From a bacterium (lineage in GTDB: Bacteria > Patescibacteriota > Microgenomatia > UBA1400 > UBA12108), in assembly GCA_021788365.1 (NCBI GenBank), contig JAJYKS010000002.1, positions 96,521-160,520 of the forward strand: DNA of 64,000 nt. Reading direction: 5' to 3'. Positions within the stretch are counted from its first letter, which is position 1; each line of letters begins with the position of its first letter. A program made the position numbers and the translations under genes. The notes under the pieces are model-generated. The model was not told the DNA's origin. It did not search any database and was given only the letters and a program-made list of their open reading frames with translations. Shown here piece by piece: positions 6,243-57,220 of this stretch.

Positions 6243-6944
6243 ATGCAGCTATTTTTGAATAAATTAGTTGAGAAGGCGCTCACGCAAGGCGAGGTAGGGA
6301 ACCGCGCCAACAAAATACAAATCACCGGTGCCTGGAATCCCGACATCGTTATCTCCCGAGATCCGGGGAGTGGCGGTCGCGTCATCGCGCAAAAAATCGC
6401 CAAAAAACTCGAGTGGAAGCTGCTCGATAAAAAAATCATGGAAGAGCTCTCACGCGATCTAGGTATTCCCGAACGAGAGTTCGCCGAAGTCGACGAGCAT
6501 GGCCGCAGTTGGCTCACAGACTCTATCCGTACACTTTTCGATCCCCACTTTGTCTCGGATGTAACGTACGTCAATCACCTCAAGCGTCTGCTGACGCACG
6601 CGGCAAAAGGGGCCGATATAGTGATCGTTGGTCGCGGTGCCAACCACATTATCCCCGCCGACAAATGCCTGCGCGTCAAGATCACTGCATCCTGGAAAAC
6701 TCGAGTAGACAATACCTACAAATATGAAAAAAAGAAATCGCGCGAAGAAGCAGAGGCTTGGGTAAAGCACGTCGAGGAAAAGCGCAACCGCTTTATCGAA
6801 CAATATTTTGGTATGGAAGGCTGTCACCCAGAACACTTTGACCTCATTGTGAATACCGATTACCTCACCCTCGATACCGCCCGCGACATGGTGATTGCTG
6901 CGTTCTACGCCAAATTCCCTGACATGCGCCGCAGAGTCAAATAA
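6243..6944 (+). CDS. Cytidylate kinase-like family protein (AAA_28/CMP kinase-like P-loop protein)
   Basis: 233 aa with an N-terminal ISRDPGSGGRVIAQKIAKKL glycine-rich loop typical of the cytidylate kinase-like family. Host-like GC. Confidence 0.55.
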   Translation: MQLFLNKLVEKALTQGEVGNRANKIQITGAWNPDIVISRDPGSGGRVIAQKIAKKLEWKLLDKKIMEELSRDLGIPEREFAEVDEHGRSWLTDSIRTLFDPHFVSDVTYVNHLKRLLTHAAKGADIVIVGRGANHIIPADKCLRVKITASWKTRVDNTYKYEKKKSREEAEAWVKHVEEKRNRFIEQYFGMEGCHPEHFDLIVNTDYLTLDTARDMVIAAFYAKFPDMRRRVK

Positions 6945-8679
6945 CTTCCCGTACGGTATAATTACTTCGTTGCCGAGATGGCGGAACTGGTAGACGCGCA
7001 CGTTTCAGGAGCGTGTGGAGCAATCCATGGAGGTTCAAGTCCTCTTCTCGGCACCATAGAGAACTTTTTAAATAGTTTTTCAAATCTTCCCGATTTGACA
7101 AGCTATTTTCAGGTTCAAGCGGTCCATTTTTATCGTTGGTGGTTTTTGCACCCTCTTTTAACTTCAAAAAGATAAATCTAGGCTGATATTCAAGTTTTTG
7201 ATCTAGTAAGATCGGGTTCAAGCCGATTGCCTTGAAAATGACCTTTTTGTCTTCTGAGTCTCCACTTTCAAACCGTTGCTTAGCCAGTAACGCGAACTCG
7301 AAGGAGTCTTTTGCAACCTCAGCCCAGTCGGATTCACCACTTTTTGCATGAGCTAGTTGGTGGGTAAGGTTATCTTTCTCGATCATCAGCTCACGTTTCC
7401 TGTCACCAAACTCGGCGTCTGAAAGTAAGCTGCCATCATTTTCTGGGGATATCTTGAGAGCTATCAGATTATCAATTCTCCGATTTACCCCGTCTAAGGC
7501 AGTCTGGAGAGCTTCTACACTTGTTTTATTGACCACCTGACTCTTTTCCTTGGTTTCGTTGAGGGCTTCATACGCCCAATCTACAAATTCCTTATCTTTA
7601 ATCTCGAGTTGACATAAATCGCTAGCGAACTGTCCCTCCAATTTTGAAGTTGAGATGTAGCGCTGGTTACATTTTTCTTCTCCCTTTTTCGTACAACTAT
7701 AGTAGCCAAATACTTGTTCAGTACCATTTTTGTATTTCTTTTTGTGTTCCTGGGCGGTGATGCAGTAATGGCACTCTCCACAATGGATAATACCGTTCAA
7801 GGCGAAGTCATGCTTTTGTTGTCTTGCCTTTGATCTGCCATCTAAAATGTCTTGTAAGAGGTTAAATTCTGCTTCACTGATCATTGCTGGATGTTGGCCT
7901 TGGTATATTTTGCCACAATACATAAACTTGCCGGTATAAAATGGATCACGTAATAGTCTGTGCATCCAACTTTTAACGATAGGCCTACCAGATTTAGAGC
8001 TTCTGATTCCTAAAATCTTGGCTTCACGCATCAATGCTTGAACGCTGTAATTACCAGTTAGTGCAAGATCGAAGAGTTTTCTCATTAAAGGAAAATACAC
8101 CGGGTGAGGTGAGATATCGCGTAACCCTTGAGGTTTTTCGTGATTATTTTTGTATCCTGGTCGTGCTCTACCCGGAAATACACCTCGTTCAGCTTTGAGT
8201 TTTAGTGCCTCCGTGACATTGACACTTTTATTGTCATTCTCAAGTTTTGCCTGGGTACAAAGCAAATTCAGCATGAATTTATCATTCGGATTATTCCGGA
8301 ATGTTTGGTATGGGGTTACTACTTCAAGCAGCTTACCTTGATCCATTAGGTAGATAACCCTGCCGGTATCGACCGTGTTTCTTGATAGACGTGAGGGGTT
8401 AAGAAGCACGATTCCATTCACATCGCCATCTTCAATCTTTTGTATAAGTTGTCCAAAAATAGGTCTGCCTGGAATTTTAGCCGTTCGTTGTTCTTGAAGT
8501 GGTTCACCGACGAGCTCAACACCTCGCTGACGGACGAGAGCAGTTAAATTCGTAATCTGATCAGGAAGTGATTGAATTTGTCTCTCATCAGATTCACTAC
8601 TTTTTCGGCAATACATCATATAGCGAGGGATAATCGGCGTCTGACTTATATTTTGCGTGTTATAGTCTGCCAGTCTCAT
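6937..8679 (-). CDS. Large serine recombinase (integrase) of the island
   Basis: 580 aa with an N-terminal resolvase domain (catalytic Ser in [12 protein letters not shown]), a recombinase domain, and a Cys-rich zinc-ribbon region (CGECHYC...CTKKGEEKC). The likely real start is the MMY at about 8619. The last ~39 codons run antisense through tRNA-Leu, so the true C-terminus is uncertain. Confidence 0.85.
6972..7056 (+). tRNA. tRNA-Leu (anticodon CAG) with encoded CCA
   Basis: Acceptor stem is GCCGAGA/TCTCGGC. D stem is GCG/CGC with an 11-nt D loop containing GG. Anticodon stem is CACGT/GCGTG with loop TTCAGGA (anticodon CAG). A long variable arm is followed by T arm GGTTCAAGTCC, discriminator A and CCA. 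The low-GC island begins immediately 3' of this gene. Confidence 0.85.
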
Positions 8680-14233: not shown

Positions 14234-14590
14234 ATGTCAGACACAAATCCAGTGCGTTTACAGAAACTTTTAAAGCTTATTTCCAATGAGAATAAGTTCA
14301 ACATTATCCAACTTCTTTCCAAAGGAGAGGTTTGTGTGTGTGATATCGGCGAGAAACTAGGCATCGAGCAGTCATTAGTTTCTCACCATTTAAATTCGCT
14401 TCGAAAAGCCGGACTTATTAACGATCGCAAACTTGGAACTTGGATACACTGCTCATTAAACAGAAATGCGTTCGCAGACTTAATGTCCCTGTTTTATATG
14501 CACTTAAGTCAGGATGCGATATCGGAAAAAATGTGTTGCGTACACGATGAATGTAAATGTTTACGTAAAGGAGCAAAAAATGAAAAATAA
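14234..14590 (+). CDS. arsR: ArsR-family arsenic-responsive repressor
   Basis: 118 aa with a winged HTH and an As(III)-binding ELCVCDL-like motif (GEVCVCDIGE). It is the first gene of the ars operon. Confidence 0.8.
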   Translation: MSDTNPVRLQKLLKLISNENKFNIIQLLSKGEVCVCDIGEKLGIEQSLVSHHLNSLRKAGLINDRKLGTWIHCSLNRNAFADLMSLFYMHLSQDAISEKMCCVHDECKCLRKGAKNEK

Positions 14591-14894
14591 AATCATTATT
14601 TACGATCCACCTATGTGTTGTTCTTCAGGGGTTTGTGGACCTAATCCAAATAGAACCTTGCTTGATTTTCAAGACACCTTCAAACATTTAGTCCAAAATG
14701 GGGAATTGATTGAACGCTACATCATTACCCAAAGTCCAGAGAAATTTAAGGAAAATCCGAAAATTATTAAGCTAATCCAAGACCAAAAGTTAAAAGTTCT
14801 TCCTATTACTACAGTCAATGGAGACGTAGTAAAAACCGGATCGTATCCAACTAAAGAAGAACTTGAAAGTTATTTAGTAATTAGAAAAGCATAA
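14580..14894 (+). CDS. arsD: Arsenic metallochaperone/repressor ArsD
   Basis: N-terminus MKNKIIIYDPPMCCSSGVCGP matches the ArsD Cys12-Cys13-Cys18 motif. An RBS (aaggagc) precedes the ATG at 14580. The ORF-track start at 14514 is probably too far upstream. Confidence 0.8.
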   Translation: MKNKIIIYDPPMCCSSGVCGPNPNRTLLDFQDTFKHLVQNGELIERYIITQSPEKFKENPKIIKLIQDQKLKVLPITTVNGDVVKTGSYPTKEELESYLVIRKA

Positions 14895-14897
14895 AGC

Positions 14898-16748
14898 ATG
14901 AATACAAAATTCTTATTTTTCTCAGGTAAAGGCGGGGTGGGTAAAACAACCATGTCTTGTGCCACTGCCATTCATTATGCCAATGAAGGTAAAAAGACAT
15001 TAATTATTACCACTGACCCGGCTTCGAATCTTGCGGATGTATTTGAACAAACAATTGGCCATAAAATTACTCCCATCAAAACAATCTGGAACCTTTCAGC
15101 TATGGAGCTCGATCCGGATAAGGCTACAGCAGAGTATAAAGAACGGACGTTATCCCCTTTGCGAGGACTTATCCCAGAAGAAAGTTTTGCCGTTCTTGAA
15201 GAACAATTAAACTCACCGTGTACCGCAGAAATGGCCTCTTTTGACCGCTTTACTGATTTTGTGCAGGATGGTCAGTTTGATATTGTCATTTTTGATACCG
15301 CTCCGACCGGTCATACATTGCGTTTACTTGAGTTGCCGGTGGAATGGAGTGGGGTGATTGAAAAAGCAGCTAATGATAGTAGCGGTGGACAAACCTGTAT
15401 TGGTCCTGCGGCAGCGTTGGCAGCCTCCAAAGCCAAGTTTGATCGAGCTATCACTGTCATGCGAGATCCCAGAATTACAACTTTTCTATTCGTTCTGCGC
15501 CCCGAATCAACACCAATCTATGAAGCTGAGCGCTCTATTTCCGAGCTGAATAAGTTAGATATTCACTCGTTGGAGATCATCGTCAACGGAGTCTATCCAG
15601 CAGAAGCTTGTGACAATCCCTTCATGACTGCGCGGTTTATGAAACAACAGGAGTTTTTAAAGGCAATTAACCAGAAGTTTTCGGTTCCCGCTCGAATCGT
15701 TGAATTAGGCTCCGAAGAAATCAAAGGAGTTGAACGTCTAGCTTCAATTGCCGTCAAACTCTTTGATAATCCAACAGAACTGATAGATTATCAATACAAA
15801 AATCTGGAGGTGAAAGAATCGTCTGCAACTCATGGTTATGTTTTACCCAACGAAAACATAAAGAAATTGCTCACCCCCTTAAATGAGAAGAAACGGGTGA
15901 TCTTTTTTGCCGGTAAAGGCGGTGTGGGTAAGACCTCGATTTCCGCCGCTACCGCTCTCTGGGTGGCCCAAGCCGGATACAAGACATTATTGTTAACCAC
16001 TGATCCAGCCTCTCACTTAAAACAGATTTTTGATCAAGAAGTCACTGACAAACCTACTCTGGTGAACGGAGAGAAAAATTTATGGTTTACACATATTGAC
16101 GCTAAAAAAGCGGTAGAAGAATACAAGGAGAAAATTCTCTCTGAGGCTCGAACTAAATATGATAAAGATCGCGTCACTGCTATTGAAGAGGAGCTAAACT
16201 CACCCTGTACCGAAGAAATGGCCACCTTTGAAAAATTTATTGAGTTTGTCGCCCGAAAAGACTTTGAGGTAATTGTATTTGACACGGCTCCCACTGGTCA
16301 TACGTTACGATTGCTCGAATTACCCGTGGACTGGAACAGGCAATTGGAAATTAAAACTTTTACCACAACAGGTGAAACCGATGTCGATAAGATAACTAAG
16401 TCTAAATTTAAGGAAGTGATTGATCTGCTTCAGGATCCAGATCAGACTACATTTAGTTTTGTTATGTATCCGGAAGCAACACCAATTGAAGAAGCATCTA
16501 GGGCGATTAAGGAACTCTTAACCATCAGCGTCCCTACTAGTCTGATTGCGGCTAACTTAATTCTTTCCGAAACTATTGTTACCAATGAGTATTTACGGCA
16601 ACGAAAGGCCATGCAGGAGAAATATCTAGCTGTAATGGCTAAACGCTTTACAGCCCCCATCGTTACTCTCCCACTCCTAAAAGAAGATTTAATGGGCAAA
16701 GATCGATTGCGTGAAGCTGGTTATCTATTGTATGGAAAATTAAACTAA
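14898..16748 (+). CDS. arsA: Arsenite-transporting ATPase ArsA (duplicated halves)
   Basis: 616 aa with two P-loops (GKGGVGKTT twice) and two TDPASNL/TDPASHL motifs. A metalloid-binding Cys is present. Confidence 0.9.
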   Translation: MNTKFLFFSGKGGVGKTTMSCATAIHYANEGKKTLIITTDPASNLADVFEQTIGHKITPIKTIWNLSAMELDPDKATAEYKERTLSPLRGLIPEESFAVLEEQLNSPCTAEMASFDRFTDFVQDGQFDIVIFDTAPTGHTLRLLELPVEWSGVIEKAANDSSGGQTCIGPAAALAASKAKFDRAITVMRDPRITTFLFVLRPESTPIYEAERSISELNKLDIHSLEIIVNGVYPAEACDNPFMTARFMKQQEFLKAINQKFSVPARIVELGSEEIKGVERLASIAVKLFDNPTELIDYQYKNLEVKESSATHGYVLPNENIKKLLTPLNEKKRVIFFAGKGGVGKTSISAATALWVAQAGYKTLLLTTDPASHLKQIFDQEVTDKPTLVNGEKNLWFTHIDAKKAVEEYKEKILSEARTKYDKDRVTAIEEELNSPCTEEMATFEKFIEFVARKDFEVIVFDTAPTGHTLRLLELPVDWNRQLEIKTFTTTGETDVDKITKSKFKEVIDLLQDPDQTTFSFVMYPEATPIEEASRAIKELLTISVPTSLIAANLILSETIVTNEYLRQRKAMQEKYLAVMAKRFTAPIVTLPLLKEDLMGKDRLREAGYLLYGKLN

Positions 16749-16753
16749 AACGT

Positions 16754-17116
16754 ATGAACGACCAACTTTTACAACTTGTCCGTGGTTTTTCTCAAGAATT
16801 GGTAAATGAAATACCTGAATTTCAGGAACTCATTCAAGCGAAACAGGCACTCGATAGAGATCCGGTGTCACAACGATTATGGCAAGAAAAGGAAGAGCAA
16901 CGACAAACTGTAGACTTACTAAAAAAACAAGGTTTACCAGTATCAACCGAACAGGAGCAGAGATTGTTTCAAAAACTCCAAGAGATGCGGGAGAACCCTA
17001 TCACGATGCGATATCTTAAGGCTATCAATTTTGCTAATAAAATATCAGGCAAAATCGGCGCCGAATTATTTGATTTTATCGGGGTTGACTTTGCCCCAAG
17101 AAAGGGGTGTGCATAA
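16754..17116 (+). CDS. YlbF/YmcA (UPF0342)-like protein ending in a Cys motif
   Basis: 120 aa helical protein with the YlbF-like pattern (EFQELIQAKQAL...PVSQRLWQEKEE...NPITMRYLKA). The C-terminus reads PRKGCA. Confidence 0.4.
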   Translation: MNDQLLQLVRGFSQELVNEIPEFQELIQAKQALDRDPVSQRLWQEKEEQRQTVDLLKKQGLPVSTEQEQRLFQKLQEMRENPITMRYLKAINFANKISGKIGAELFDFIGVDFAPRKGCA

Positions 17117-17484
17117 TGTCAAAACAAATCTATTCTAAAACAAAAGACTACATTCAATCCTTACTGGATACTGATGAAGTGAAAGCCTATACCAAAGCGG
17201 TTGATGATTTTCAAAACGATATCGAGGCTAAAAAACTACTGAAAGATTTGCAGGAATCACAACAAACGCTTGCTGTATTTCGACAGGGTGGATTTACAGG
17301 TGTAGAAGAACAGGAGCGTAAAGTGAAGCTTTTGCGGAATAAAGTTTCTAAAGATAAAAAAGTTCAAATCTTAATAAGATCACAACAAGAGTTACAAGAT
17401 TTAGTGGGTGCATTGGCGGGAGAAATCAGTCAAGCAATTAATTTCCCATTTGCCCAACCACAACGAGGAGGGTGCTGCGGCTAA
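17107..17484 (+). CDS. Second YlbF/YmcA (UPF0342)-like paralog with a Cys-rich C-terminus
   Basis: 125 aa with the same family pattern (EVKAYTKAVDDFQND...AKKLLKDLQESQQ). The C-terminus reads QRGGCCG. It overlaps the previous gene by 10 nt. Confidence 0.4.
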   Translation: MCIMSKQIYSKTKDYIQSLLDTDEVKAYTKAVDDFQNDIEAKKLLKDLQESQQTLAVFRQGGFTGVEEQERKVKLLRNKVSKDKKVQILIRSQQELQDLVGALAGEISQAINFPFAQPQRGGCCG

Positions 17485-17487
17485 ACT

Positions 17488-18228
17488 ATGAAAAACATTA
17501 AGCAAATAGTCAAAGAAAATTATTGCCAAATCGCCAAGCAAAATAGTTCGTGCTGCGGTGGTGGTTCATGCTGTAATGGTAGTTTGCCAGATTTAAGCAA
17601 AATTATCGGGTATACCGACGAACAGATAACTGAAGTACCGGATGGCGCCAATCTCGGTTTGGGTTGTGGTAACCCACTCGCTTTAGCAACATTGAAACCA
17701 GGAGAAACGGTATTGGATTTGGGCTCAGGAGCTGGCTTTGACGTATTTCTAGCATCTCGGAAAGTAGGATCCAGCGGTAAGGTTATTGGTGTGGATATGA
17801 CTGAAGAAATGATTAAAAAAGCCAGGAAGAATGCTATTACCGGTAAATTTACAAACGTTGAGTTTAAACTGGGAGATATTGAAAATTTACCCGTAGAAAG
17901 TTCAACCATTGATGCAATTATTTCCAATTGTGTCATTAATTTAGCACCGAATAAGAATAAGGTTTTTGCTGAAGCTTACCGAGTACTAAAGCCCGGTGGC
18001 AGATTGATGATCTCCGATGTAGTGTTATCAAAGGAACTACCAGAGAATCTAAAAGGTGACGAAGCACTGCTAACTGGTTGCGTTAGTGGAGCCATTCTAA
18101 AAGAAGACTATTTGCAAATGATAAAGGAAGCTGGATTTAAAGAAGTCAAAATTACCAAGGAAGTGCCGATGTTCATGGAAGCGTATGCACTAAGCATTTC
18201 ATTTACTGCAAAGAAAGTTAATAAATAA
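17488..18228 (+). CDS. arsM: Arsenite S-adenosylmethionine methyltransferase ArsM
   Basis: 246 aa. N-terminal Cys cluster ([10 protein letters not shown]). SAM-binding motif [13 protein letters not shown] and the conserved C-terminal VSGA region. Confidence 0.8.
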
Positions 18229-18424
18229 TGAGTAACAAATTATGATAAATATATTTTATTGTCAAAAATGCAAAAGGAAAATGATGATTTCAATAAATAT
18301 GCTGAAGAGTTACAAAATAGAGGTGGCGGATGTTATGTCGATAGAGTGTGCCACGGCTAAACTATGAAAAACACAAATACTTTTATTTGTTGACATTTAC
18401 AATTGTTTTTTATAGCATTAACAT

Positions 18425-18811
18425 ATGTCTTCATCAAAAAAAGTTGATTTAGTGAGTATGGCAGATTCGGCCTGTCAAACGGAAATTCCTCGATATAGAA
18501 AGAATGGAACACCTTTCCTGTCAAATTCTATGCTCATCAATTTTTCAACTTTTGCCCATGCACTTAGCGATAGTATCCGACTTCAAATGCTCTTTTTGTT
18601 GACACAATATCCTGACCTATGTACCTGTGAATTCGAGGAGCTTTTATCTATAAGTCAATCGAAAGTGTCTTATCACCTCAAGATACTCACTGATGCTCAA
18701 CTTGTTTCACGAAAAACGCAAGGAACATGGAGTCACTTTAGTCTTATTCGGAAAGATATTTTTAATGAGCTTCAACCCTTTACTAAATTTAAGAAAAAAA
18801 ACCAATCATAA
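18425..18811 (+). CDS. ArsR/SmtB-family metal-responsive regulator
   Basis: 128 aa with an HTH and a LCTCE metal-site motif. It immediately precedes a P1B ATPase. A candidate promoter TTGACA(18390-18395)-N16-TATAGC lies upstream. Confidence 0.7.
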   Translation: MSSSKKVDLVSMADSACQTEIPRYRKNGTPFLSNSMLINFSTFAHALSDSIRLQMLFLLTQYPDLCTCEFEELLSISQSKVSYHLKILTDAQLVSRKTQGTWSHFSLIRKDIFNELQPFTKFKKKNQS

Positions 18812-21072
18812 TGAAAAATAATCATTCAAAAAAATCTATTAAGACAGTTGAAATACCTATTCAAGGCATGACCTGCGTTGACTGTTCGTTTGATATTGAG
18901 GCTGCTATAAAAAAGGTACCAGGCGTGCAAACTGTTGAGGTACTCGTAAACTCCGAAAAGGCACACGTCCAATTCGATCCAACGAAAGCATCGATTGAGG
19001 ATATTCACTCTGCGATAGAAAATGCTGGCTATTGCACCCCGCTTTCTCTTCAACCAACAGTGCAACCAAAAAATCCATCGGATACTCAAATACCGTTGGG
19101 AAATTTTACTAATCGCATTTTAATACTATTTGGAATTGTGTTTGGAGTGGTTTTACTTGTTGTCGTGATGGGTGAAGTGCTTGGGATATTTGATCGTTAC
19201 ACAGAGCAAATACCATGGTTTGTCTGGCTTATTTTAGTGATTATCAGCGGGTATTCGATTTTTCGAGGAGTTATTCAAGCAACACTAAGAAAACAGATAA
19301 CCTCGCATACCCTCATGACGGTGGGGCTTATTGCAGCTGCAGTTGTTGGAGAATGGACTACAGCACTACTTATCGTTTTTTTCATGCGAGTTGCCGAGTA
19401 TGTTGAGAAATTTACTACTGAACGTGCCAGGCAAGCTCTGAAAAACCTTACCCGACTTGCTCCACTCACAGCTCGAATAGAAAAAAATGGAGAGGAACAA
19501 GAAGTCATGATTGGGGCAGTACAGAAAGACGATATTGTTATCGTCCGACCAGGAGAACGTATTCCCGTTGACGGTGTTGTTATCGATGGCCAAGCAACAG
19601 TAAATCAAGCAGCGATTACAGGTGAATCAATGCCGGCAGAAGTCGGTGTCGGAGCGAAAGTATATGCTGCAACAATAGCACAATTCGGGACGCTTCGCAT
19701 TCGCACCACTCTTATCGGTGAAGATACAACTTTTGGCAAAGTGATTAAATTGGTTGAGGAGGCAGAAACCCATCGAGCAGACGTACAACGAGTTGCGGAT
19801 AAGTTTTCCGCATACTATTTACCGGTTGTTGTCGTTGTAGCAACACTCACATTTGTATTTAGTCACAATCCTTTGGCGACCGCTGCCGTTTTAGTCGTTG
19901 CCTGTTCCTGTTCGTTTGCCATGGCTACCCCCATAGCCGTTTTAGCTTCAGTGGGAGCGGCTGCTAAGAGAGGCCTGCTTGTTAAAGGAGGAAAATACCT
20001 TGAAGAGCTCTCGCGTATTGATGTTTTATTGATTGATAAGACTGGGACTTTGACTTTAGGTCGTCCTACAATTTTAGACGTAGTTTCTTTGGGTAAAATG
20101 ACAGAGAGTGAAATTGTTAAACTGGCTGCTTCTGCAGAAAGGTATTCAGAGCATCCCTTAGCTGAAGCGGTACGAACTCTCGCACACAATCGAAATATTA
20201 CTTTGTCTCAACCAAGTGAGTTTGTGGCCATACCAGGAAAAGGAATTCGGACAAAAATCTCAGATAAATCAATTGCCGTGGGAAGCAAACGTCTCTTTAC
20301 AGACAGTATGTTAAACGATAAAAAAATCCATGAAATAATTTCCAAACTTGAAATACAGGGAAAGACATGTTTGATAGTTTCGCAAGATGATACTATTGTC
20401 GGAATATTAGCAGCTTCAGATACAACGAGAACTGAAGTGCCCAAAGCGATAGATGACCTTCGTGCACTGGGCATCAAAAAAATAGAGCTGTTGACTGGTG
20501 ACAATGAACGAGTCGCCGCTTCACTTGCAAATACTTTAAAAGTTGATTACCAGGCTGGTCTTCTCCCTGAAGACAAAATACGAATCGTAAAAGAATATCA
20601 GAAAAAAGGTCACACTGTTGCAATGATTGGTGATGGGGTAAACGATGCTCCCGCTCTTGCCCAAGCCAATGTCGGAATTGCCATGGGAGCAGCCGGCACT
20701 GATGTCGCAATTGAGGCAGCACATATTGCATTGATGCGCGATGATTGGGCGCTTATACCAGAGGTCATCCATATATCTCGCCGTACCATGTCTGTTGTTA
20801 AATTTAATATTGGATTCACTGTTGTGTACAACTTTATTGGTTTAGCGCTCGCATCAACTGGCATTTTACCTCCTGTGTTTGCAGCGGCTGCCCAAACACT
20901 GCCCGATTTAATTATTTTAGGAAATTCATCTCGTTTATTAAAAAGGAGTGTATTTACAAAAAATATTCCTATTAATAAAGTAAAATTTACTAACAGAAAT
21001 GAAAAAGGAGCTGAATGCGATCCAAATACCTGCGCATGCGGCTCAGTATCAATTGATCAGGTACACTCTTAA
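18811..21072 (+). CDS. Heavy-metal P1B-type ATPase with a non-canonical CSC transmembrane motif
   Basis: 753 aa. N-terminal HMA domain (GMTCVDCSFDIEAA). DKTGTLT phosphorylation site and GDGVNDAP motif. The TM6 motif reads VVACSCSFAMATP where CPC is expected. A Cys-rich C-terminal tail (CDPNTCACGS) is present. Confidence 0.85.
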   Translation: MKNNHSKKSIKTVEIPIQGMTCVDCSFDIEAAIKKVPGVQTVEVLVNSEKAHVQFDPTKASIEDIHSAIENAGYCTPLSLQPTVQPKNPSDTQIPLGNFTNRILILFGIVFGVVLLVVVMGEVLGIFDRYTEQIPWFVWLILVIISGYSIFRGVIQATLRKQITSHTLMTVGLIAAAVVGEWTTALLIVFFMRVAEYVEKFTTERARQALKNLTRLAPLTARIEKNGEEQEVMIGAVQKDDIVIVRPGERIPVDGVVIDGQATVNQAAITGESMPAEVGVGAKVYAATIAQFGTLRIRTTLIGEDTTFGKVIKLVEEAETHRADVQRVADKFSAYYLPVVVVVATLTFVFSHNPLATAAVLVVACSCSFAMATPIAVLASVGAAAKRGLLVKGGKYLEELSRIDVLLIDKTGTLTLGRPTILDVVSLGKMTESEIVKLAASAERYSEHPLAEAVRTLAHNRNITLSQPSEFVAIPGKGIRTKISDKSIAVGSKRLFTDSMLNDKKIHEIISKLEIQGKTCLIVSQDDTIVGILAASDTTRTEVPKAIDDLRALGIKKIELLTGDNERVAASLANTLKVDYQAGLLPEDKIRIVKEYQKKGHTVAMIGDGVNDAPALAQANVGIAMGAAGTDVAIEAAHIALMRDDWALIPEVIHISRRTMSVVKFNIGFTVVYNFIGLALASTGILPPVFAAAAQTLPDLIILGNSSRLLKRSVFTKNIPINKVKFTNRNEKGAECDPNTCACGSVSIDQVHS

Positions 21073-21077
21073 ATTAT

Positions 21078-21725
21078 ATGAGCAAAAAGAAACATAATCT
21101 TAGACAATCATCTTATGATCCGTCCATGGAGACAGTCATGCCTATGGAGAATCCGGTATCGAGTAAGAATAATCTGCAAGTCTTATTTCTTGCGCTTGGG
21201 ATCGGTATCGTTTTGATATTAATATTGGCAAATCGTTTACTAGACCTGAAAAATAATACAAGCAATGGATCAGTAAAGGCTGTAAGTACGATTCAAGGAG
21301 TAGGAGGTATAACATGGAGTGTTCCAACGATTGACGGAGGCACATATGATTTTGCAGAGCATAAGGGAAAGCCGACGGTTTTATTCCTAAGTTCTTCATG
21401 GTGTAAAGAATGTCGAGGTGAAGTGGCAAAATTAGCCCGTGTATACAACACATACAAAAATAAGGGGCTGGAGATTGTTGCTCTTGATATCTATCCTCAG
21501 GAGGGTCCAGAGCCGTGGAGACAGTTTAAGGATGATGGCGCGGGTGGCGAGACTGTAAATTATGTGTGGGCTATGGATACAAATAATCAGATTGCTCGTC
21601 TATTAAACGTTCAATATTTGGATACAAAAATATTTATAAACAGTCAAGGAAAAGAGGTAGCACGTACCCTTGGTATTCGCCCTTACGAAGAGATTGAAGC
21701 ACATGTTAAGGAGACGCTTCAATGA
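21078..21725 (+). CDS. Membrane-anchored thioredoxin-like (TlpA/ResA-like) thiol-disulfide oxidoreductase
   Basis: 215 aa with an N-terminal TM segment and a WCKEC CxxC motif in a thioredoxin-fold context. Confidence 0.65.
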   Translation: MSKKKHNLRQSSYDPSMETVMPMENPVSSKNNLQVLFLALGIGIVLILILANRLLDLKNNTSNGSVKAVSTIQGVGGITWSVPTIDGGTYDFAEHKGKPTVLFLSSSWCKECRGEVAKLARVYNTYKNKGLEIVALDIYPQEGPEPWRQFKDDGAGGETVNYVWAMDTNNQIARLLNVQYLDTKIFINSQGKEVARTLGIRPYEEIEAHVKETLQ

Positions 21726-22417
21726 ACAATCTCCCTCTAGCGTATGCATTCGGCGCCGGATTGCTGGCGACCTTAAATCCATGTTGTGTGGCAATGCTTC
21801 CATCCTTCCTCGCGTTTTATATCGGAGCCAATAACGAAGGCTACGAGCACATTCCACTACATAGTCGCCTAAAGAATGCAGTTATGACAGGAATCCTTGT
21901 CACATTAGGGTTCTTAACCATATATCTTGGTGGTGGCATCTTGGTAAGTCTAGGCTTACAAATGTTTATCAACTGGGTACCTCAACTTACGATCCTCATA
22001 GGGTCCATTTTAATGGTAATGGGCGGGACTATGCTCCTAGGGCACTCTCTTAAGGTTCATCTATTTCATCCACAATGGAGCGTAAAAAAAACGGGATTAT
22101 TGCCAATGTTTTTATATGGGGTAAGTTATGCAATTGCATCGTTATCGTGCACATTGCCAATGTTCTTGATTATCGTAGGCAGTACAGCCTCTGCTCCAGG
22201 ACCACTATCGACACTGCTTATGTTTCTGAGTTATGGGTTGGGAATCGCAGTTGTTCTTATTGGTATCACCTGCGCAACTATGCTCTTTCAGACTGCAGTA
22301 AATCGATGGCTGCACAGAATTCTTCCATATGTTCAGATAGTTAGCGGGTTGCTTCTGATTGGGGTGGGAGCGTATTTAATCTATTATCAATTACACTTTG
22401 CCTTTAGGTTGTTTTAA
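21722..22417 (+). CDS. CcdA/DsbD-family transmembrane electron transporter
   Basis: 231 aa multi-TM protein with an NPCCVAMLPSFLAFY signature. It is translationally coupled to the thioredoxin-like gene. Confidence 0.7.
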   Translation: MNNLPLAYAFGAGLLATLNPCCVAMLPSFLAFYIGANNEGYEHIPLHSRLKNAVMTGILVTLGFLTIYLGGGILVSLGLQMFINWVPQLTILIGSILMVMGGTMLLGHSLKVHLFHPQWSVKKTGLLPMFLYGVSYAIASLSCTLPMFLIIVGSTASAPGPLSTLLMFLSYGLGIAVVLIGITCATMLFQTAVNRWLHRILPYVQIVSGLLLIGVGAYLIYYQLHFAFRLF

Positions 22418-23837: not shown

Positions 23838-24030
23838 AGGTTAGTTGCACTATGAATAAATTTTTCTATGAATAATGCAAATTAGGATTTGAAGTCTAAG
23901 AAAATAATCTTGAATATTAAGATCAGCAATGTCTTCTCACCTGCCTAATTTGCAAATCTCGTTAGAGCTAATTTGTAAAAAATTTCATAATTTCACACCT
24001 CCTTTTGACTTCTTCCCGAAATTAATTGTT

Positions 24031-24176: not shown

Positions 24177-25466
24177 CTATTTCTGTATAAAGGGAAACTG
24201 ATAATACGTTGCTTTGCTACCGAGCTGCCGCTCAATTCTCATAAGTCGATTATATTTTGCTACCCGTTCGCTTCGGGCGGGAGCGCCGGTTTTCATTTGT
24301 CCTATTCCCATTGCAACGGTAAAATCAGCTATAAATGTATCTTCCGTTTCTCCACTCCTATGGGAAACGACTGATGACATGCCGTTTTTCCGAGCAAGTA
24401 ACACTGCGTCAACCGTTTCTGTCAACGTGCCGATTTGATTCAGTTTGATGAGAACAGAGTTAGTCGTTTTACTATCTATGCCTTTTTGTAATAGTTTTAC
24501 GTTTGTCACATACAAATCATCGCCGACAATTTGTAATTTGTCCTCATACGACGAGGTAAATCTTTGAAATGCTTCCCAGTCATCCTCAGCAAATATATCT
24601 TCAAGGGAAATGATGGGATATTTTTTGGCAAGTTGTGTAAAAAATTCCGCTAGTTCATCACTGTTCACTGTTTTTCCTTCTTTACTGAGTTGGTATGTTC
24701 CATTTTTATAAAATTCAGATGCGGCAGGATCAATACCAAAACTAATATCTCTGCCAAGAATATAGTTTGCTTTTTCTATTGCCTCAGACAATAATTGAAA
24801 TGGCTCTTCATTTGATGTTACATTTGGAGCAAAACCACCCTCATCACCAACAGTTACACTGTAACCTTTTGTTTTTAGAATCTTTTTGAGACTTTGATAA
24901 ACCTCAGTATTCATGCGTACCGCCTCAACTATATTTTTTACTCCAATCGGAAACAGCATATATTCCTGAATATCGGTTGCCCAATTAGCGTGCTTACCAC
25001 CATTCATAACATTCATTTCTGGAATTGGCATGAGATATGTTCCCATAAAATCAGGATTAAATTTCGTAAGGTATTCGTAGAGTTCTTTTTTTTCAGTTGC
25101 CGCTTGTGCTCTGGCGGCACTCAGCGATACAGAAAGAATTGCATTGGTGCCAAGCTTTGCTTTATTTTCTGTACCATCCAAGTCAATTAACGTTTGATCA
25201 AGCTTCCGTTGATCCTGCGCATCTATACCTGAAACTGCATTGCTAATAATTGAATTCACATTGGCAACGGCGGACAGCACACCCTTTCCGTTATAACGAT
25301 TGATATCTCCATCACGAAGTTCAACGGCTTCGTGTTTTCCGGTAGAAGCGCCTGATGGTATAGCGGCCCAACCTGTTGATCCATCTTCAAGAATTGTTAC
25401 CGCTTCAATCGTCGGATTTCCCCGACTATCAAGAATTTCTTGTGCATTTACTGATCTAATTTTCAT
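24177..25466 (-). CDS. eno: Enolase (phosphopyruvate hydratase), island-borne copy
   Basis: 429 aa with a canonical N-terminus (IRSVNAQEILDSRGNPTIEAV) and the SHRSGETED motif. It is the last gene of the fluoride-riboswitch operon. Confidence 0.95.
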   Translation of the reverse strand: MKIRSVNAQEILDSRGNPTIEAVTILEDGSTGWAAIPSGASTGKHEAVELRDGDINRYNGKGVLSAVANVNSIISNAVSGIDAQDQRKLDQTLIDLDGTENKAKLGTNAILSVSLSAARAQAATEKKELYEYLTKFNPDFMGTYLMPIPEMNVMNGGKHANWATDIQEYMLFPIGVKNIVEAVRMNTEVYQSLKKILKTKGYSVTVGDEGGFAPNVTSNEEPFQLLSEAIEKANYILGRDISFGIDPAASEFYKNGTYQLSKEGKTVNSDELAEFFTQLAKKYPIISLEDIFAEDDWEAFQRFTSSYEDKLQIVGDDLYVTNVKLLQKGIDSKTTNSVLIKLNQIGTLTETVDAVLLARKNGMSSVVSHRSGETEDTFIADFTVAMGIGQMKTGAPARSERVAKYNRLMRIERQLGSKATYYQFPFIQK

Positions 25467-26656
25467 ACGCGAAAGTATCTCTTTCTATGATACATAACAA
25501 ATATGGCAAGTGCGAGTATTGCCATCACACTGCCATACAAAAACGTTGCAGATGGTTTTATTGTATTCCAGAGAATTCCGCCAATAAAAGAAGCCAAAAA
25601 TGTCCCGATTGCCGTAATCGTATAATACGCTCCAAAATATGTTCCGGATTCCTCAGGATGGATAAATTCGGCGATGTACGCCTTTGACACTCCGTCGGTC
25701 GCTGCAATATAGATGCCATATATAGGAAACAAAAACCAGAGTAATTGCGTCGTATGAATGATTCCAAAGGCGAAATATACGATTGCAAAGATCAGGAGAC
25801 CAAATAAATAGACTTTTTTCGGTCCCAAACGGTCCGATGTTTTTCCAAGCGGCGTGGAAAATGCCGTATACGATATGTTATAGAGCACATAGGCAAGAAC
25901 GACAAAGGTTGTTGTAAGTCCTAAGTTTTTTGCCTGTAGGAGAAGAAACGCATCGGAGCTGTTACCCGCCGAAAAAATAAAGCTGATTAGCAAAAAAAAT
26001 TTTAATTCCTTGGGTATAGTTCGCCAGGAAAAACGACTTAAACGGTACTGAGATGTAATGGTCGCCCGTTTTGTTTCACCAACAAAAAAGAATATGAGAA
26101 GTATAGCGATAACTGCAGGAATGAACGCGATAAAGAATGTCAGTCGGATATTTTCTTTGAATAGTGCTAAGAGAACTAGAGCCGCAAGTGGCCCAAATAC
26201 TGCACCTAGGCTATCAAACGCGCGATGGAATCCGAAAATGAATCCTCGGTTCGTGCGGTTGGTATTATCGAGAAGTAAACTATCTCGCGCTGCGGTCCGC
26301 ATGCCTTTGCCGAGACGGTCAATAAAGCGGGCAAAGAGGACAAGCGGCCACGTGTACGCAAGACCGATAAGCACCTTTGAAACCGCTCCTAGCGTATAGC
26401 CGCCTATTACAAATGGTTTCCGCTTATGAATTGAATCGGAATATACGCCAAATAAGAACTTCGTGATGCTTGCGGTTGCCTCGGCAATACCTTCGATCAA
26501 CCCAATGACTGGAATTGTCGTGTGAAGAACTGAGGTTAAGAAAATCGGGACTATCGGGTAAATCATTTCCGACGCCAGATCATTGAAAAAACTCACCAAA
26601 CCCAAAAAGAAGACTGTTCGTGGGATAGATGTCAGTTTTTTCGTTACTATGGACAT
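25463..26656 (-). CDS. MFS transporter
   Basis: 397 aa with 12 predicted TM segments and the MFS loop motif (RFIDRLGKGMRTAARD). Confidence 0.8.
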   Translation of the reverse strand: MSIVTKKLTSIPRTVFFLGLVSFFNDLASEMIYPIVPIFLTSVLHTTIPVIGLIEGIAEATASITKFLFGVYSDSIHKRKPFVIGGYTLGAVSKVLIGLAYTWPLVLFARFIDRLGKGMRTAARDSLLLDNTNRTNRGFIFGFHRAFDSLGAVFGPLAALVLLALFKENIRLTFFIAFIPAVIAILLIFFFVGETKRATITSQYRLSRFSWRTIPKELKFFLLISFIFSAGNSSDAFLLLQAKNLGLTTTFVVLAYVLYNISYTAFSTPLGKTSDRLGPKKVYLFGLLIFAIVYFAFGIIHTTQLLWFLFPIYGIYIAATDGVSKAYIAEFIHPEESGTYFGAYYTITAIGTFLASFIGGILWNTIKPSATFLYGSVMAILALAIFVMYHRKRYFRV

Positions 26657-26670
26657 GATTTTATTGTACG

Positions 26671-27195
26671 CTACTTACCCTCAGCGGCGAACCGTTTTTG
26701 CGCTTCATTGATAATCCTATATGCTTCCGTTTTATTAAGCCAACCTACAACTTCAACGTTTTTTTCTTCGAGATGTTTATACACTTCAAAGAAATGGACT
26801 ATTTCCTTTCTGTGATGTTCGTTTACGTCGTCAATCTCCTTGAGATACGATAGTTTTGGATCCCTATCAGCAACAGCAAGAATTTTCCAATCCTGACCGG
26901 CATTATCATTCATGTTCAACATTCCAATAGGTCGAACAGTTAAGATACAACCAGGGAATGTGGGTTCAGTTATAAGAACAAGCACATCTAAATGATCGCC
27001 GTCTTCTGAACGAGTTTGTGGAATAAAACCATAGTCTGTCGGATAAAAGACTGGTGAATGCAGGACTCGGTCAAGTCGAATTTCGTCAAAGTTTTCGTCG
27101 TACTCATATTTGTGATGCGATCCTCGAGGAATCTCAACGATAACAGTAATTATTTCCGGAGCTTTATCTCCGAGTGGAATTGTATGAAATGCCAT
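26671..27195 (-). CDS. ppa: Family I inorganic pyrophosphatase
   Basis: 174 aa with the motifs EIPRGS..KYE, DGDHLDVLV and the DNAGQDWK-type pattern of soluble PPases. Confidence 0.9.
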   Translation of the reverse strand: MAFHTIPLGDKAPEIITVIVEIPRGSHHKYEYDENFDEIRLDRVLHSPVFYPTDYGFIPQTRSEDGDHLDVLVLITEPTFPGCILTVRPIGMLNMNDNAGQDWKILAVADRDPKLSYLKEIDDVNEHHRKEIVHFFEVYKHLEEKNVEVVGWLNKTEAYRIINEAQKRFAAEGK

Positions 27196-27197
27196 AT

Positions 27198-27539
27198 TTA
27201 TCCTTTCTTCCCATATTGAATAATTTGAACTCGCTCTTGAGTTATTAATGTGCTCGCGGATATATCCCAGGTTGAATACACTTGTTTAAATTGCTCAATT
27301 TTTTCTTCCCTATCAACAACTTCGACTATAATTGGCTCATCAGAAGAAAGTTCTAGGATGTTTGCCGTATGGATTTTACTGGCTTTTCCATACCCCTCTA
27401 TGCCACGAAGAACAGTGACGCCAGCGAAATGATTTGTCCTAAGGTATTCGACAATATACATATATAACGTTTTCCCTTGATATTTATCTTTCTCACCCAT
27501 GTATATGCGAAGTAATAGTACTGTTGATTCTTGTTCCAT
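27198..27539 (-). CDS. DUF190-family protein (commonly fluoride-riboswitch associated)
   Basis: 113 aa with LLLRIYMGEKDKYQGKTLYMYIVEYLR...AGVTVLRGIEGYG, matching the DUF190 pattern usually found next to crcB. Confidence 0.7.
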   Translation of the reverse strand: MEQESTVLLLRIYMGEKDKYQGKTLYMYIVEYLRTNHFAGVTVLRGIEGYGKASKIHTANILELSSDEPIIVEVVDREEKIEQFKQVYSTWDISASTLITQERVQIIQYGKKG

Positions 27540-27541
27540 AG

Positions 27542-27919
27542 TTACTTAGTTATCAATATTGCCAAATTTCTGCTTAATCCAATTGCCAATAAGCATAACA
27601 GTATGTTTGCAGAGAGATTTATACCAAATAATAATACATCGTTCATCTCTGCAAGTCTTACAGACTCAAAAGCAAACGTTGACATAGTGGTATAAGCACC
27701 AATAAATCCAACGGTTATCATATTACGAATATCTGGATTGATATTTCTGCCATATAGCACCATATAGCTGATAAATCCGAGAAAAAAACTTCCTGTAACG
27801 TTCACGAATAAGGTGCCTATAGGAAATGACGGGAAAAGATTACCTATAAAGCGGGAAATAATAAATCTACTGATACTGCCAAAAAATCCACCAATTCCAA
27901 TATAGATAACTTGTTGCAT
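27542..27919 (-). CDS. crcB: Fluoride ion channel CrcB/Fluc
   Basis: 125 aa, 4 TM segments, with the characteristic N-terminus (IGIGGFFGSISRF...GTLFVNVTGSFFLG). Confidence 0.85.
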   Translation of the reverse strand: MQQVIYIGIGGFFGSISRFIISRFIGNLFPSFPIGTLFVNVTGSFFLGFISYMVLYGRNINPDIRNMITVGFIGAYTTMSTFAFESVRLAEMNDVLLFGINLSANILLCLLAIGLSRNLAILITK

Positions 27920-27920
27920 A

Positions 27921-27997
27921 AAAAAAAAGCTCCTACAAAAATATTTGTAGAAGCTATCAGCCTTTCGGCACTTATAGAGCGAGCTTCATCGCTTACG
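27921..27997 (-). ncRNA. Fluoride riboswitch (crcB motif) with an intrinsic-terminator expression platform
   Basis: The minus strand reads AGCGAUGAAGCUCGCU-CUAUAA-GUGCCGAAAGGC-UGAUAGCUUCUAC. This matches the fluoride aptamer architecture: GCGAUGRRGYUCGC P1, a GNRA-capped P3, the conserved GAUGnnUUCUAC-like 3' segment, and a GAAGCU/AGCUUC pseudoknot. It is followed by hairpin CUACAAA-UAUU-UUUGUAG and U8 immediately 5' of the crcB ATG. Confidence 0.7.
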
Positions 27998-28171
27998 TTG
28001 TATTATAGTTGTGAAAAATATTGTTTGCAAGGTGACTATTGTTTGGGTAAATATCAAAGATAGATTAGACCCAATACTGATCGTTGCCTCTCTGTTTCGT
28101 CACCATTCATGAAGCAAATACTCGCACAATAAAAACAGTAATCAGTTTCCTCAAAATTGGTCAAAACTATC

Positions 28172-28222: not shown

Positions 28223-28240
28223 GTCCTGCGAAGTTACAAC

Positions 28241-52711: not shown

Positions 52712-53047
52712 ATGAATAAAAAATTAATCACTATATCTTCACTAGCCATCATGGCGCTAGTATTTGCATCTCCAGCATACGCAGCAGCAGGTGACGTCAC
52801 CAACGTTGAAACATTCATCAAGAGCATCATTCTCATTCTCGTTAAAATTGCTGGACTTGTCGCAGCCGGATTCTTTGTCTGGGGAGGGTTTGGATATATC
52901 ACCAGTTCCGGAAATCCTGAAATGCTTGATCGTTCCAAGAAAACAATTTTGTACTCTGCAATCGGGCTTGCGGTTGTTCTTGGTGCGTTTGTTTTAACAA
53001 ATATCGTATCCGACTTGGCTACCGGTGCATTTGGTGCCACGCCGTAA
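52712..53047 (+). CDS. VirB2/TrbC-like T4SS pilin candidate
   Basis: 111 aa with a signal peptide ending AYAAAG and two hydrophobic helices (IILILVKIAGLVAAGFFVWGG, ILYSAIGLAVVLGAFVL). An RBS (aggaggtg) is present. It is the first gene of the T4SS cluster. Confidence 0.45.
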   Translation: MNKKLITISSLAIMALVFASPAYAAAGDVTNVETFIKSIILILVKIAGLVAAGFFVWGGFGYITSSGNPEMLDRSKKTILYSAIGLAVVLGAFVLTNIVSDLATGAFGATP

Positions 53048-53074
53048 ATACAATTATGCACGAAAAAATACTTT

Positions 53075-54352
53075 ATGCTGAAACTGATGCTCTTGGCCGG
53101 TATCATACTTAGCTCGTTATTATTTCCTCACTCAGTTCTGGCCGCTTCTTCAATTCCTGAAATTACTTCATACACTTCGGATACACTCACCATTATCACT
53201 CTGATTGCCTCTGCGTCTGCAGTATTCTTTTTACTGCGTGGTGGGTATCTTTATATCACTTCAACCGGCAAACCGGAGGTTCTAGAAGAAGCTAAGAAAA
53301 CAATTCGTAATGCGCTACTTGGCCTTGTTCTTGTTATCGCGGCACACGCCATCGTTTCCACTCTTCAAGGTGCGCTTGTTGGCAATACAAATACAGGTAC
53401 AATATCGAATCTTCCGTTAGCCCAGATTGAAAGTGTCAAACCAAATGAGGGATTAACTCAAGTACTGATTGATGCCGTCAATGGATTTATCCAAAATATC
53501 GTGGAAAGCTCTACAAAGCCTGTGGTGGACGGAATTATGACCATGCTTACCACGACACCGGAATTACTAACAAATGGCACGATTGTTAAATTTTGGCTCA
53601 TTATGCTAGGTATTACTGATACACTTTTTGTTCTGGTTGTCGCTTTTTTGGGACTTCAGTTTATGAGTACCTCCACTTTTGGATTTGAGGAGATTGAATT
53701 CAAGCATCTGCTTCCCAGAATTGGCTTAGCCTTCCTGGGGACGAATATATCTTTGTTTCTCGCTGATTATGCCGTAAAGACTTGTAACGCTCTGGTGAGT
53801 GGCGTCATTTCAGCAACAGGTGGTCTTAATCATGCATGGATTACAAACGCTATCACACTGCAAAACATCACCACTGGAACTGCACCATTAATTACTTTGA
53901 TATTTTTACTTCTCTTCTTGATAGTCGCAATTGTTCTACTACTCATGTATATCAGTCGGCTAATCGTTATTGCACTTGGAGCTGTCCTTTCACCTTTTAT
54001 TTTTCTTCTCTGGACACTCCCAAAAACTGCTGACTTTGCCGAAATGGCAATTAAGAGCTATTTAGTCTCCGTATTTATGATCTTTATCCATGTCGTAACA
54101 ATTCAATTGGCAGGGTCGTTTCTGGCGCTTCCGGAACAAACGAATAATTCACTTATCTCAGTGGCTGTTGCAATTGGACTTCTATTTACCTTACTTAAAA
54201 TTCCGAGCTTTCTCATGCAACTTATTCTTTTCTCACGAAGTGTGGGAACGGTCAAAAGCATGGGCAGTCAGATTATTAACGTCATGAGTACAGATTCAAC
54301 ACATAAGGGAACGGTCGGAGCTAAGACACCGAGGAAGTCGATCAATATATGA
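53075..54352 (+). CDS. VirB6/TrbL-like polytopic T4SS membrane protein with an N-terminal pilin-like module
   Basis: 425 aa with at least 6 TM segments. The N-terminal ~100 aa resemble the preceding pilin (LRGGYLYITSTGKPEVLEEAKKTIRNALLGLVLV versus GGFGYITSSGNPEMLDRSKKTILYSAIGLAVV). Confidence 0.5.
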   Translation: MLKLMLLAGIILSSLLFPHSVLAASSIPEITSYTSDTLTIITLIASASAVFFLLRGGYLYITSTGKPEVLEEAKKTIRNALLGLVLVIAAHAIVSTLQGALVGNTNTGTISNLPLAQIESVKPNEGLTQVLIDAVNGFIQNIVESSTKPVVDGIMTMLTTTPELLTNGTIVKFWLIMLGITDTLFVLVVAFLGLQFMSTSTFGFEEIEFKHLLPRIGLAFLGTNISLFLADYAVKTCNALVSGVISATGGLNHAWITNAITLQNITTGTAPLITLIFLLLFLIVAIVLLLMYISRLIVIALGAVLSPFIFLLWTLPKTADFAEMAIKSYLVSVFMIFIHVVTIQLAGSFLALPEQTNNSLISVAVAIGLLFTLLKIPSFLMQLILFSRSVGTVKSMGSQIINVMSTDSTHKGTVGAKTPRKSINI

Positions 54353-54822
54353 GAACAACAATTATTCCGGCACAAATCACTACTGTCGAAGACAAAATTG
54401 CAGGATCACTGAATTTTGTTCAGATAATGCTCATGATGACACCCGTGCTCTGGGGGACCTTGGTGTATGCAATCTTTAGTCCGGTCATGAAGATATCACC
54501 ATACAAAATTAGCTTAGTTCTGTTCGTAACCGCCATATCACTCGTCTTGGCGCTCAGGATAAAAGATAAAATAATTGCTGAGTGGATTGGTATACTTCTT
54601 CGGTATAAATTACGGCCTACATATTATGTATTTAACAAAAATGACGTAAGCGAACGCATAATTGATCTGCCGTTTGAACCAACATCCCATCATAAGACTT
54701 CAGTAGCAAAAGCCGGAAAAAAACAAACAACCGAATTATCGATAGAAGAGCTAATACGTCTTGAACAGGCGATGAACTCAAAACGACTCGCTGTCTCATT
54801 TCATTATGGAAAAAGAGGATAA
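54349..54822 (+). CDS. VirB3/PrgI-like small T4SS membrane protein
   Basis: 157 aa with two TM segments immediately upstream of VirB4, as in Gram-positive T4SS. Confidence 0.4.
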   Translation: MRTTIIPAQITTVEDKIAGSLNFVQIMLMMTPVLWGTLVYAIFSPVMKISPYKISLVLFVTAISLVLALRIKDKIIAEWIGILLRYKLRPTYYVFNKNDVSERIIDLPFEPTSHHKTSVAKAGKKQTTELSIEELIRLEQAMNSKRLAVSFHYGKRG

Positions 54823-54824
54823 CT

Positions 54825-57219: not shown

Positions 57220-57220
57220 C

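Follow-up and report, generated by a model that had tools for sequence, protein, structure and literature searches.

The subject of this study is a fluoride operon in a 64,000-nt stretch of contig JAJYKS010000002.1 (the whole stretch of DNA that was analysed, to which we refer as the window). A fluoride riboswitch here heads five same-strand open reading frames (ORFs), crcB-DUF190-ppa-MFS-eno, and we think it likely that together they form a resistance operon induced by fluoride, and that they are the cargo of an integrative conjugative element (ICE) integrated at a tRNA-Leu 3' end. In this arrangement CrcB would export fluoride, and the extra pyrophosphatase and enolase would compensate for two classic fluoride-inhibited enzymes. 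This dosage-compensation role of eno and ppa, as well as the fluoride response of the predicted riboswitch and the co-transcription of the five genes, is what we infer from the sequence. The leader and the genes behind it, given in the order of transcription, are the following:

28002..28030 (-), promoter-like site of the sigma-70 type, TTGCAA-17-TATAAT, 10/12 matches (consensus match only)
27941..28002 (-), fluoride riboswitch aptamer (RF01734), with P1 AGCG/CGCU, P3 GCC-GAAA-GGC and pseudoknot GAAGC:GCUUC
27919..27955 (-), expression platform: a 12-bp hairpin (27955..27928), then U9, then the crcB AUG at 27919
27542..27919 (-), crcB, Fluc-type fluoride channel, 125 aa (PF02537, 86.1 bits vs 32.9)
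27198..27539 (-), DUF190/UPF0166 protein, 113 aa (Pfam, 110 bits)
26671..27195 (-), family I soluble inorganic pyrophosphatase (PPase), ppa, 174 aa (PF00719, 197 bits vs 23.5)
25463..26656 (-), MFS transporter, 397 aa, of a highly conserved, uncharacterised family (MFS_1, 159 bits)
24177..25466 (-), enolase, eno, 429 aa (TIGR01060, 599.6 bits vs a cut-off of 300)

Scanning the whole window with Rfam cmscan at the gathering thresholds returned two tRNAs and one fluoride riboswitch, and nothing else. The riboswitch matches RF01734, for which the gathering score is 34 bits, at 28002..27941 (-) with 37.4 bits (E = 9e-7; full model, 1-64). A first-pass annotation of this DNA had proposed a well-formed fluoride aptamer here, and the significant match in this covariance search of the minus strand, which lies above the curated Rfam threshold, together with the compensatory pairing that we observe, bears out the proposal, including P1, the GAAA-capped P3 and the pseudoknot as they had been drawn. 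P1 reads GCGAUGAAGCUCGC, of which (A)GCG/CGC(U) is the paired part; P3 consists of 3 bp capped by GAAA; and GAAGC in the P1 loop pairs with GCUUC in the tail to form the pseudoknot. The Rfam consensus has GGAGU/ACUCC at these positions, which means that both strands are altered here with their pairing kept, and since such a compensatory change is not scored by the covariance model, the pseudoknot provides independent support for the aptamer. The covariation set comprised only four related riboswitch leaders (n = 4). All cells (100%) of P1 and the pseudoknot are paired across these four, and 3/9 of the pairs show compensatory double changes (12:27, A-U/U-A; 14:25, C-G/U-A; 22:51, C-G/U-A). As a control, the partners were slid by 1 to 3 columns, and pairing then fell to 31-48%. 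We regard the covariation result as coherent, though the sample is small.

So how would this leader act as a switch? Its minimum free energy fold contains P1, P3 and a 12-bp hairpin (-25.5 kcal/mol, z = -2.7), and a terminator scan recovers the same hairpin at 27955..27928. The 5' arm of this terminator, AGCUUCUAC, includes the 3' strand of the pseudoknot, GCUUC, and because of this shared strand the aptamer and the terminator are mutually exclusive; an intrinsic terminator that overlaps the aptamer directly 5' of crcB had indeed been claimed before. The 3' arm includes an AGGAG Shine-Dalgarno sequence, read from the sequence about 10 nt upstream of the crcB AUG, and therefore the OFF structure also buries the ribosome-binding site. 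Transcription would start at the promoter-like site, which runs up to 28002, where the aptamer has its first base. At low fluoride, the nascent leader would fold into the 12-bp terminator followed by U9, halting transcription before crcB, and in those transcripts that do read through, the Shine-Dalgarno sequence would stay sequestered in the hairpin. With fluoride present, the aptamer would close around a Mg2+-F- cluster, the GAAGC:GCUUC pseudoknot would take the 5' arm of the terminator, and read-through into crcB-DUF190-ppa-MFS-eno would follow. A transcriptional ON switch, reinforced at the level of translation, is the best-supported prediction for this leader. In the crcB-motif class a terminator usually overlaps the motif, and the predicted switch agrees with how this class behaves in general (PMC2864571), as well as with the operon characterised by experiment in Enterobacter cloacae FRM (PMC5533749). 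It should be noted that the range initially assigned to the system, 24177-27997, holds the operon, but that its upper end clips both the aptamer (to 28002) and the promoter (to 28030).

The canonical fluoride riboswitch, or crcB motif, is that of Weinberg 2010 (PMC2864571) and of Baker 2012, the latter insofar as it is represented in PMC5533749 and PMC11139923. The window shares with this class the aptamer in the 5' untranslated region with P1, P3 and pseudoknot, the overlapping terminator of an ON switch, and the downstream crcB. It departs from the class in its pseudoknot (GAAGC/GCUUC vs GGAGU/ACUCC), in its short P3 (3 bp with a GAAA loop), and in a terminator that additionally sequesters the Shine-Dalgarno sequence.

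The five ORFs named by the first-pass annotation are all present, identified by Pfam (CRCB 86, DUF190 110, Pyrophosphatase 197, MFS_1 159 and Enolase_N/C 178/383 bits), and tightly packed: the first four are separated by 2, 2 and 14 nt, and eno overlaps MFS by 4 nt. CrcB is presumably homodimeric, since there is a single gene. Its residues 78-83 read TTMSTF where Fluc-Ec2 has STFSTF, which places a Met at the F80 position. In the alignment to 5A43/6B2A, Ec2 N41 (in GTLFVN) and F83 are kept and F80 is replaced by Met, and Ec2 H106, reported to be intolerant of substitution, aligns with Asn in a poorly aligned end of the match, which makes this last position uncertain. The best PDB match of CrcB is 6B2A, which is itself the engineered F80M mutant. 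Within the Phe box of Fluc-Ec2, no replacement other than Met at F80 is functional, this one with 0.78 of wild-type flux (Last et al., PMC5636608), and the natural Met found here is therefore compatible with an active channel. For the DUF190 protein, the only PDB matches are 2DCL (PH1503) and 1O51 (TM0021), both structural-genomics entries deposited as hypothetical proteins. Thermococcus/Thermus PPases match the pyrophosphatase from end to end (E = 2e-47, PDB). The enolase, which aligns over its full length to 4YWS, carries VGDEGGFAP, SLED..AEDDW, VGDDL, IKLNQIG and SHRSGETED unchanged, five conserved motifs which we take to be catalytic.

That the operon is the cargo of a mobile element, as had also been proposed, is borne out by its surroundings. 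The GC content drops at 7056, being about 52% before this position and about 40% between it and the window end, and the parts that mark the element and its borders are the following:

6972..7056 (+), host tRNA-Leu(CAG); the element starts right after its CCA end (left junction 7056/7057)
6937..8679 (-), large serine recombinase, integrase candidate (Resolvase + Recombinase + Zn_ribbon_recom)
9360-11951 (+), type IV coupling protein (T4CP), profile match
12092-12865 (+), Replic_Relax relaxase candidate (PF13814), profile match, candidate only
52712..57829 (+), type IV secretion system (T4SS) block: pilin/TrbL-like, PrgI-like, TraC-like, VirB4-type ATPase and M23 peptidase
60146-61699 (-), second large serine recombinase, repeating the backbone layout
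about 62166 to beyond 64000 (+), second T4CP homolog, repeating the backbone layout

To the left of the junction lie uvrB, uvrA, uvrC, tRNA-Arg, a gene for a cytidylate-kinase-like protein and tRNA-Leu(CAG); the low-GC part also encodes a helix-turn-helix protein and DUF2958. Among the related loci that we compared (numbered with an L), the backbone of the element recurs in L076 (JGI 3300044712) and L077 at 91-95% DNA identity. In the window as in these two, identity starts right after the CCA end of a tRNA-Leu (...GCACCA/TAGAGAACTTTTTA), and the three tRNA-Leu differ (CAG vs GAG anticodons, each acceptor stem being self-complementary), as do the flanking genes beyond them. Because the backbone identity starts after the tRNA-Leu CCA in three contexts, the left end of the element can be placed at 7056/7057, and its predicted attachment site is the 3' end of tRNA-Leu genes. 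On the right, the recombinase and T4CP at 60146-64000 are 34-72% identical to the first pair at the amino acid level; this second pair suggests a related second element, probably inserted in tandem from about 60.1 kb, for which reason the first element probably ends near 59.4-60.1 kb and would be about 53 kb long.

Copies of the element differ in their cargo from the window and from one another. L076 has different genes after DUF2958, and the fluoride operon is absent from the 10 kb seen. In L077, which comes from the same sample as L075, eno lies directly beside the element backbone and there is no ars/cad block; L075 in turn lacks the ArsR-hypothetical-P1B ATPase module (window 28209-31788). 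The cargo of L078 differs as well. One discrete low-GC element, found at three tRNA-Leu sites with different cargo, thus brings together an integrase, a T4CP, a candidate relaxase and a T4SS that includes a VirB4 ATPase, and we describe it as ICE-like and putatively conjugative.

Exact-protein look-ups led back to the same assembly, in the form of ENA ERZ27233565 contig k141_818376 (130,751 bp), of which positions 62341-126340 are the window, and of Logan SRR13170411, both 100% identical. Beyond these, L075 (ENA ERZ27237587) has an operon that is 97% identical, with an identical aptamer and a near-identical leader. L078 (ENA ERZ27237563) is a diverged relative at 73% identity. Its riboswitch (37.7 bits) has a TTGAAA...TATAAT of its own upstream and heads a Na+/H+ exchanger, ppa (86% at the amino acid level), MFS (85%) and eno (74%), which directly adjoin a T4SS block that is 73% homologous to that of the window. 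The closest eno among named genomes, which at 82% is also the best eno match in the genome collection, is found in L003 (metagenome-assembled genome (MAG) DBS1-1.bin22, 36.7% GC), where two fluoride riboswitches of 42.5 and 34.8 bits lie back to back on opposite strands at 1041-1188. One of these directly heads ppa-DUF211-x-x-DUF6624-PIF1-eno; the other was seen to head a gene for a 71-aa membrane protein without a Pfam match. As such, ppa and eno stand behind this riboswitch lineage in three architectures: those of the window, L078 and L003. Because L078 carries riboswitch-Na+/H+ antiporter-ppa-MFS-eno, ppa-MFS-eno appears to behave as a conserved core, in front of which the first module, crcB-DUF190 or a Na+/H+ antiporter, would be exchangeable. 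Genes for enolase, pyrophosphatase and Na+/H+ antiporters are among those most often associated with the fluoride riboswitch, the antiporters being the second commonest class (PMC11139923).

Are the pyrophosphatase and enolase of the element truly additional to those of the host? They might instead be the only copies in the cell, that is, housekeeping genes that happen to lie behind a riboswitch, with no dosage compensation involved. Among named relatives, the flanking UvrA is most similar to those from Woesebacteria (73%), Collierbacteria (72%), Microgenomates (69%) and Roizmanbacteria (63%), on account of which we take the host to be a Microgenomatia-like bacterium of the candidate phyla radiation (CPR). 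CPR genomes are small, about 1 Mb, with little redundancy, and this favours sole copies, as do the 68-82% identity of the island eno to enolases that stand alone in Roizman-, Woese- and Microgenomates MAGs (compared with about 50% to those of ordinary bacteria) and the case of L003, in which a ppa...eno operon lies behind a homologous riboswitch and nothing in the neighbourhood points to a mobile element. However, the element that carries the genes has 40% GC and the host 52%, this element occurs with and without neighbouring cargo and at different insertion sites, and in the 10 kb seen of L076 the backbone is present but the operon is not. Moreover, a cell whose sole glycolytic enolase was placed behind a 12-bp terminator would need fluoride, which seems implausible. 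We therefore consider it unlikely that these are the only copies. Since the genes are gated by a strong terminator and reside in a mobile element that is foreign in composition and variable in its load, we infer that eno and ppa are accessory copies. With eno and MFS both of CPR type, the cargo genes were recruited from within the CPR gene pool; a xenologous eno from a distant phylum was also considered and rejected, because UvrA places the host itself among the Microgenomates.

It could further be argued that the riboswitch governs crcB-DUF190 only, and that ppa-MFS-eno is an independent module with its own promoter. Such independence would suit the observation that ppa-MFS-eno moves as a unit, behind crcB-DUF190 in the window and behind a Na+/H+ antiporter in L078, and a weak promoter-like site with 9/12 matches is found at 27556..27527. 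Yet promoter-like matches in this region number 13, compared with 15.3 expected from shuffled sequence, the gap between DUF190 and ppa is only 2 nt with no terminator in between, and in L003 the homologous riboswitch directly precedes ppa. In Enterobacter cloacae FRM, furthermore, the whole operon is co-transcribed and fluoride-induced (PMC5533749). A separate promoter for the last three genes is thus very improbable.

Several observations do weigh against a fluoride-inducible operon carried on an ICE, and must be taken into account. The RF01734 score exceeds the gathering threshold by just 3.4 bits, and P3 is paired in only 66.7% of cells across the related leaders, with poor alignment in L003. 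Two of the proteins fall short of NCBIfam equivalogs: CrcB scores 79.0 against the cut-off of 80.45 for TIGR00494, 1.5 bits short, and ppa reaches 176.8 where NF002317 sets 200. No convincing terminator was found 3' of eno, where there is just a 4-bp GGGC/GCCC hairpin with a U-run (z = -0.72 vs shuffles). The right end of the element was not found; neither the tRNA nor the junction sequence is repeated anywhere in the window. Lastly, the small, little redundant genomes of CPR bacteria and an island eno of the same type as their stand-alone enolases count here as well.

Compared with what is known, the concept of this operon is already published and tested (PMC5533749), and the window is a new example built from different parts, in a different vehicle and host. 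In E. cloacae FRM, island GI3 carries the operon riboswitch-ppaC-uspA-eno-gpmA-crcB-orf5249. Fluoride raises the expression of its ppaC, eno and crcB, which share a single riboswitch, 10- to 100-fold, and the three together provide resistance (PMC5533749). The same cassette is known from a plasmid of Pantoea vagans, pPV989-94, and from transposons (PMC5971314). Both the window and GI3 have RF01734 at the head of one operon and combine a CrcB exporter with enolase and pyrophosphatase on horizontally acquired DNA, so that they share a logic of export plus replacement of inhibited enzymes. In contrast, the PPase of the window belongs to family I (PF00719) where GI3 has ppaC, uspA and gpmA are missing from the window, which has DUF190 and MFS instead, and crcB is the first gene here and the fifth in GI3. 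The carriers differ too, a serine-recombinase/T4SS ICE at tRNA-Leu standing against a transposase-flanked island or plasmid, as do the hosts, a Microgenomatia-like CPR bacterium and an enterobacterium. Set apart by its gene content and order, the window operon seems to have arrived at the same design independently. Export together with overproduction of fluoride-sensitive enzymes under one riboswitch has apparently also been assembled from other gene families, and here the vehicle of this fluoride module is a conjugative-type element that also bears arsenic and heavy-metal resistance.

Less ordinary than the operon itself is its setting in this host. A 2025 survey found that T4SS clusters of Patescibacteria are mostly without a relaxase, as typed with MOBscan, and inferred that they are probably non-conjugative (PMC12102498). 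The window has in common with the MPF-FATA-like clusters of that survey VirB4, a pilin, PrgI/TrbL-like proteins, a T4CP and the monoderm type. Unlike the surveyed clusters, its T4SS is part of a discrete low-GC element with a recombinase, a T4CP, Replic_Relax and three insertion sites, where it should be noted that the PF13814 Replic_Relax candidate may or may not count as a relaxase in a MOBscan-based survey (PMC12102498). An element of about 53 kb, at three tRNA-Leu sites and with swapped cargo, provides sequence evidence for ICE mobility in CPR bacteria. If true, mobile ICEs in Microgenomatia would contrast with the current view of CPR T4SS as mostly non-conjugative.

What, then, do the MFS transporter and the DUF190 protein contribute? 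The MFS family comprises more than 100 clusters at 65-85% identity, mostly from CPR genomes, and in Roizmanbacteria and Saccharimonadales genomes it is also found as a lone gene amid housekeeping genes. Its sequence gave no indication of a substrate, with weak PDB matches only (NorA, YajR-like; E about 1e-5) and NCBIfam scores that were all far below the cut-offs. We scanned metagenomes for the signature GCGATGAAGCTCGC-N22-26-GCTTCT and tested six protein probes downstream of its at least 83 occurrences. Because this signature is common to many unrelated fluoride riboswitches, and 58/83 occurrences among the matches listed have none of the six probe proteins downstream, the scan says little about how frequent the cassette is. 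Among the matches listed, the MFS family nevertheless appears in riboswitch-led operons of three independent lineages: L148, with 51% identity to the MFS of the window and the N-terminal motif GLVSFFND.ASEMIYPIVPIFL in common; L162, directly after the riboswitch (34% identity); and L101 (33% identity). L139, also among the matches listed, has crcB followed by a DUF190-containing protein. This recurrence behind fluoride riboswitches suggests that DUF190 and MFS may each have a real fluoride-related role, which makes them concrete candidates for uncharacterised fluoride-response functions. Literature searches on DUF190/COG1993 and fluoride, and on MFS and fluoride riboswitches, gave nothing informative. 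A bolder and decidedly tentative proposal is that the operon is part of a genuinely mobile ICE family among Microgenomatia, and that its core, riboswitch-(crcB-DUF190 or Na+/H+ antiporter)-ppa-MFS-eno, holds a previously unrecognised fluoride-response MFS transporter (motif GLxSFFxDxxxEM; also in L148, L162 and L101).

The element carries further cargo, of which two blocks vary between copies:

14234..22417 (+), ars/cad block: ArsR, ArsD, ArsA, YlbF x2, methyltransferase, ArsR + P1B ATPase, thioredoxin-like; absent from L077
28241..31621 (-), ArsR-hypothetical-P1B ATPase module, directly upstream of the riboswitch promoter; absent from L075

The ars/cad block is flanked by a 227-bp direct repeat (13918-14144 and 23949-24157, 74% identical), and recombination between the two copies probably accounts for its gain or loss. 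At the borders of the ArsR-P1B module that L075 lacks, no significant repeats were found. Altogether, five P1B-type heavy-metal ATPases were observed (18811-21072, 28241-30685, 42009-44243, 45368-47263 and 49338-52511), alongside ArsR-family regulators, arsD/arsA and an ArsM-like methyltransferase, a metal-resistance load that is unusually dense for a CPR genome. Other cargo includes a two-component system, BlaI/BlaR-like genes and DsbA-like proteins. At the distal end (57863-60072) lie a SMODS nucleotidyltransferase (CBASS-like), an adjacent 196-aa ORF and a PLD-family nuclease; the SMODS and PLD genes are possible defence cargo.

Some minor observations remain, on the left junction and on the genes around it. 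The last 40 or so codons of the first recombinase run antisense through the host tRNA-Leu (6937-7056), by which the C-terminus of the protein depends on the insertion site; the recombinase was called at 560 aa in the window and at 544 aa in L077. L074 (Logan SRR13170411_30648), an independent assembly of the same sample, breaks at about 7228, about 170 bp inside the junction. A mixture of cells, some carrying the element and some lacking it, would be expected to cause such a break, which hints at heterogeneity of this kind. The host UvrC (4678-6015) is just 445 aa long, with GIY-YIG, UVR and RNase H-like domains and no C-terminal helix-hairpin-helix region. Outside the window, a Roizmanbacteria contig (L082, 2805-2877) carries a DUF3800-IX RNA (RF02968, 58.4 bits) beside a tRNA.

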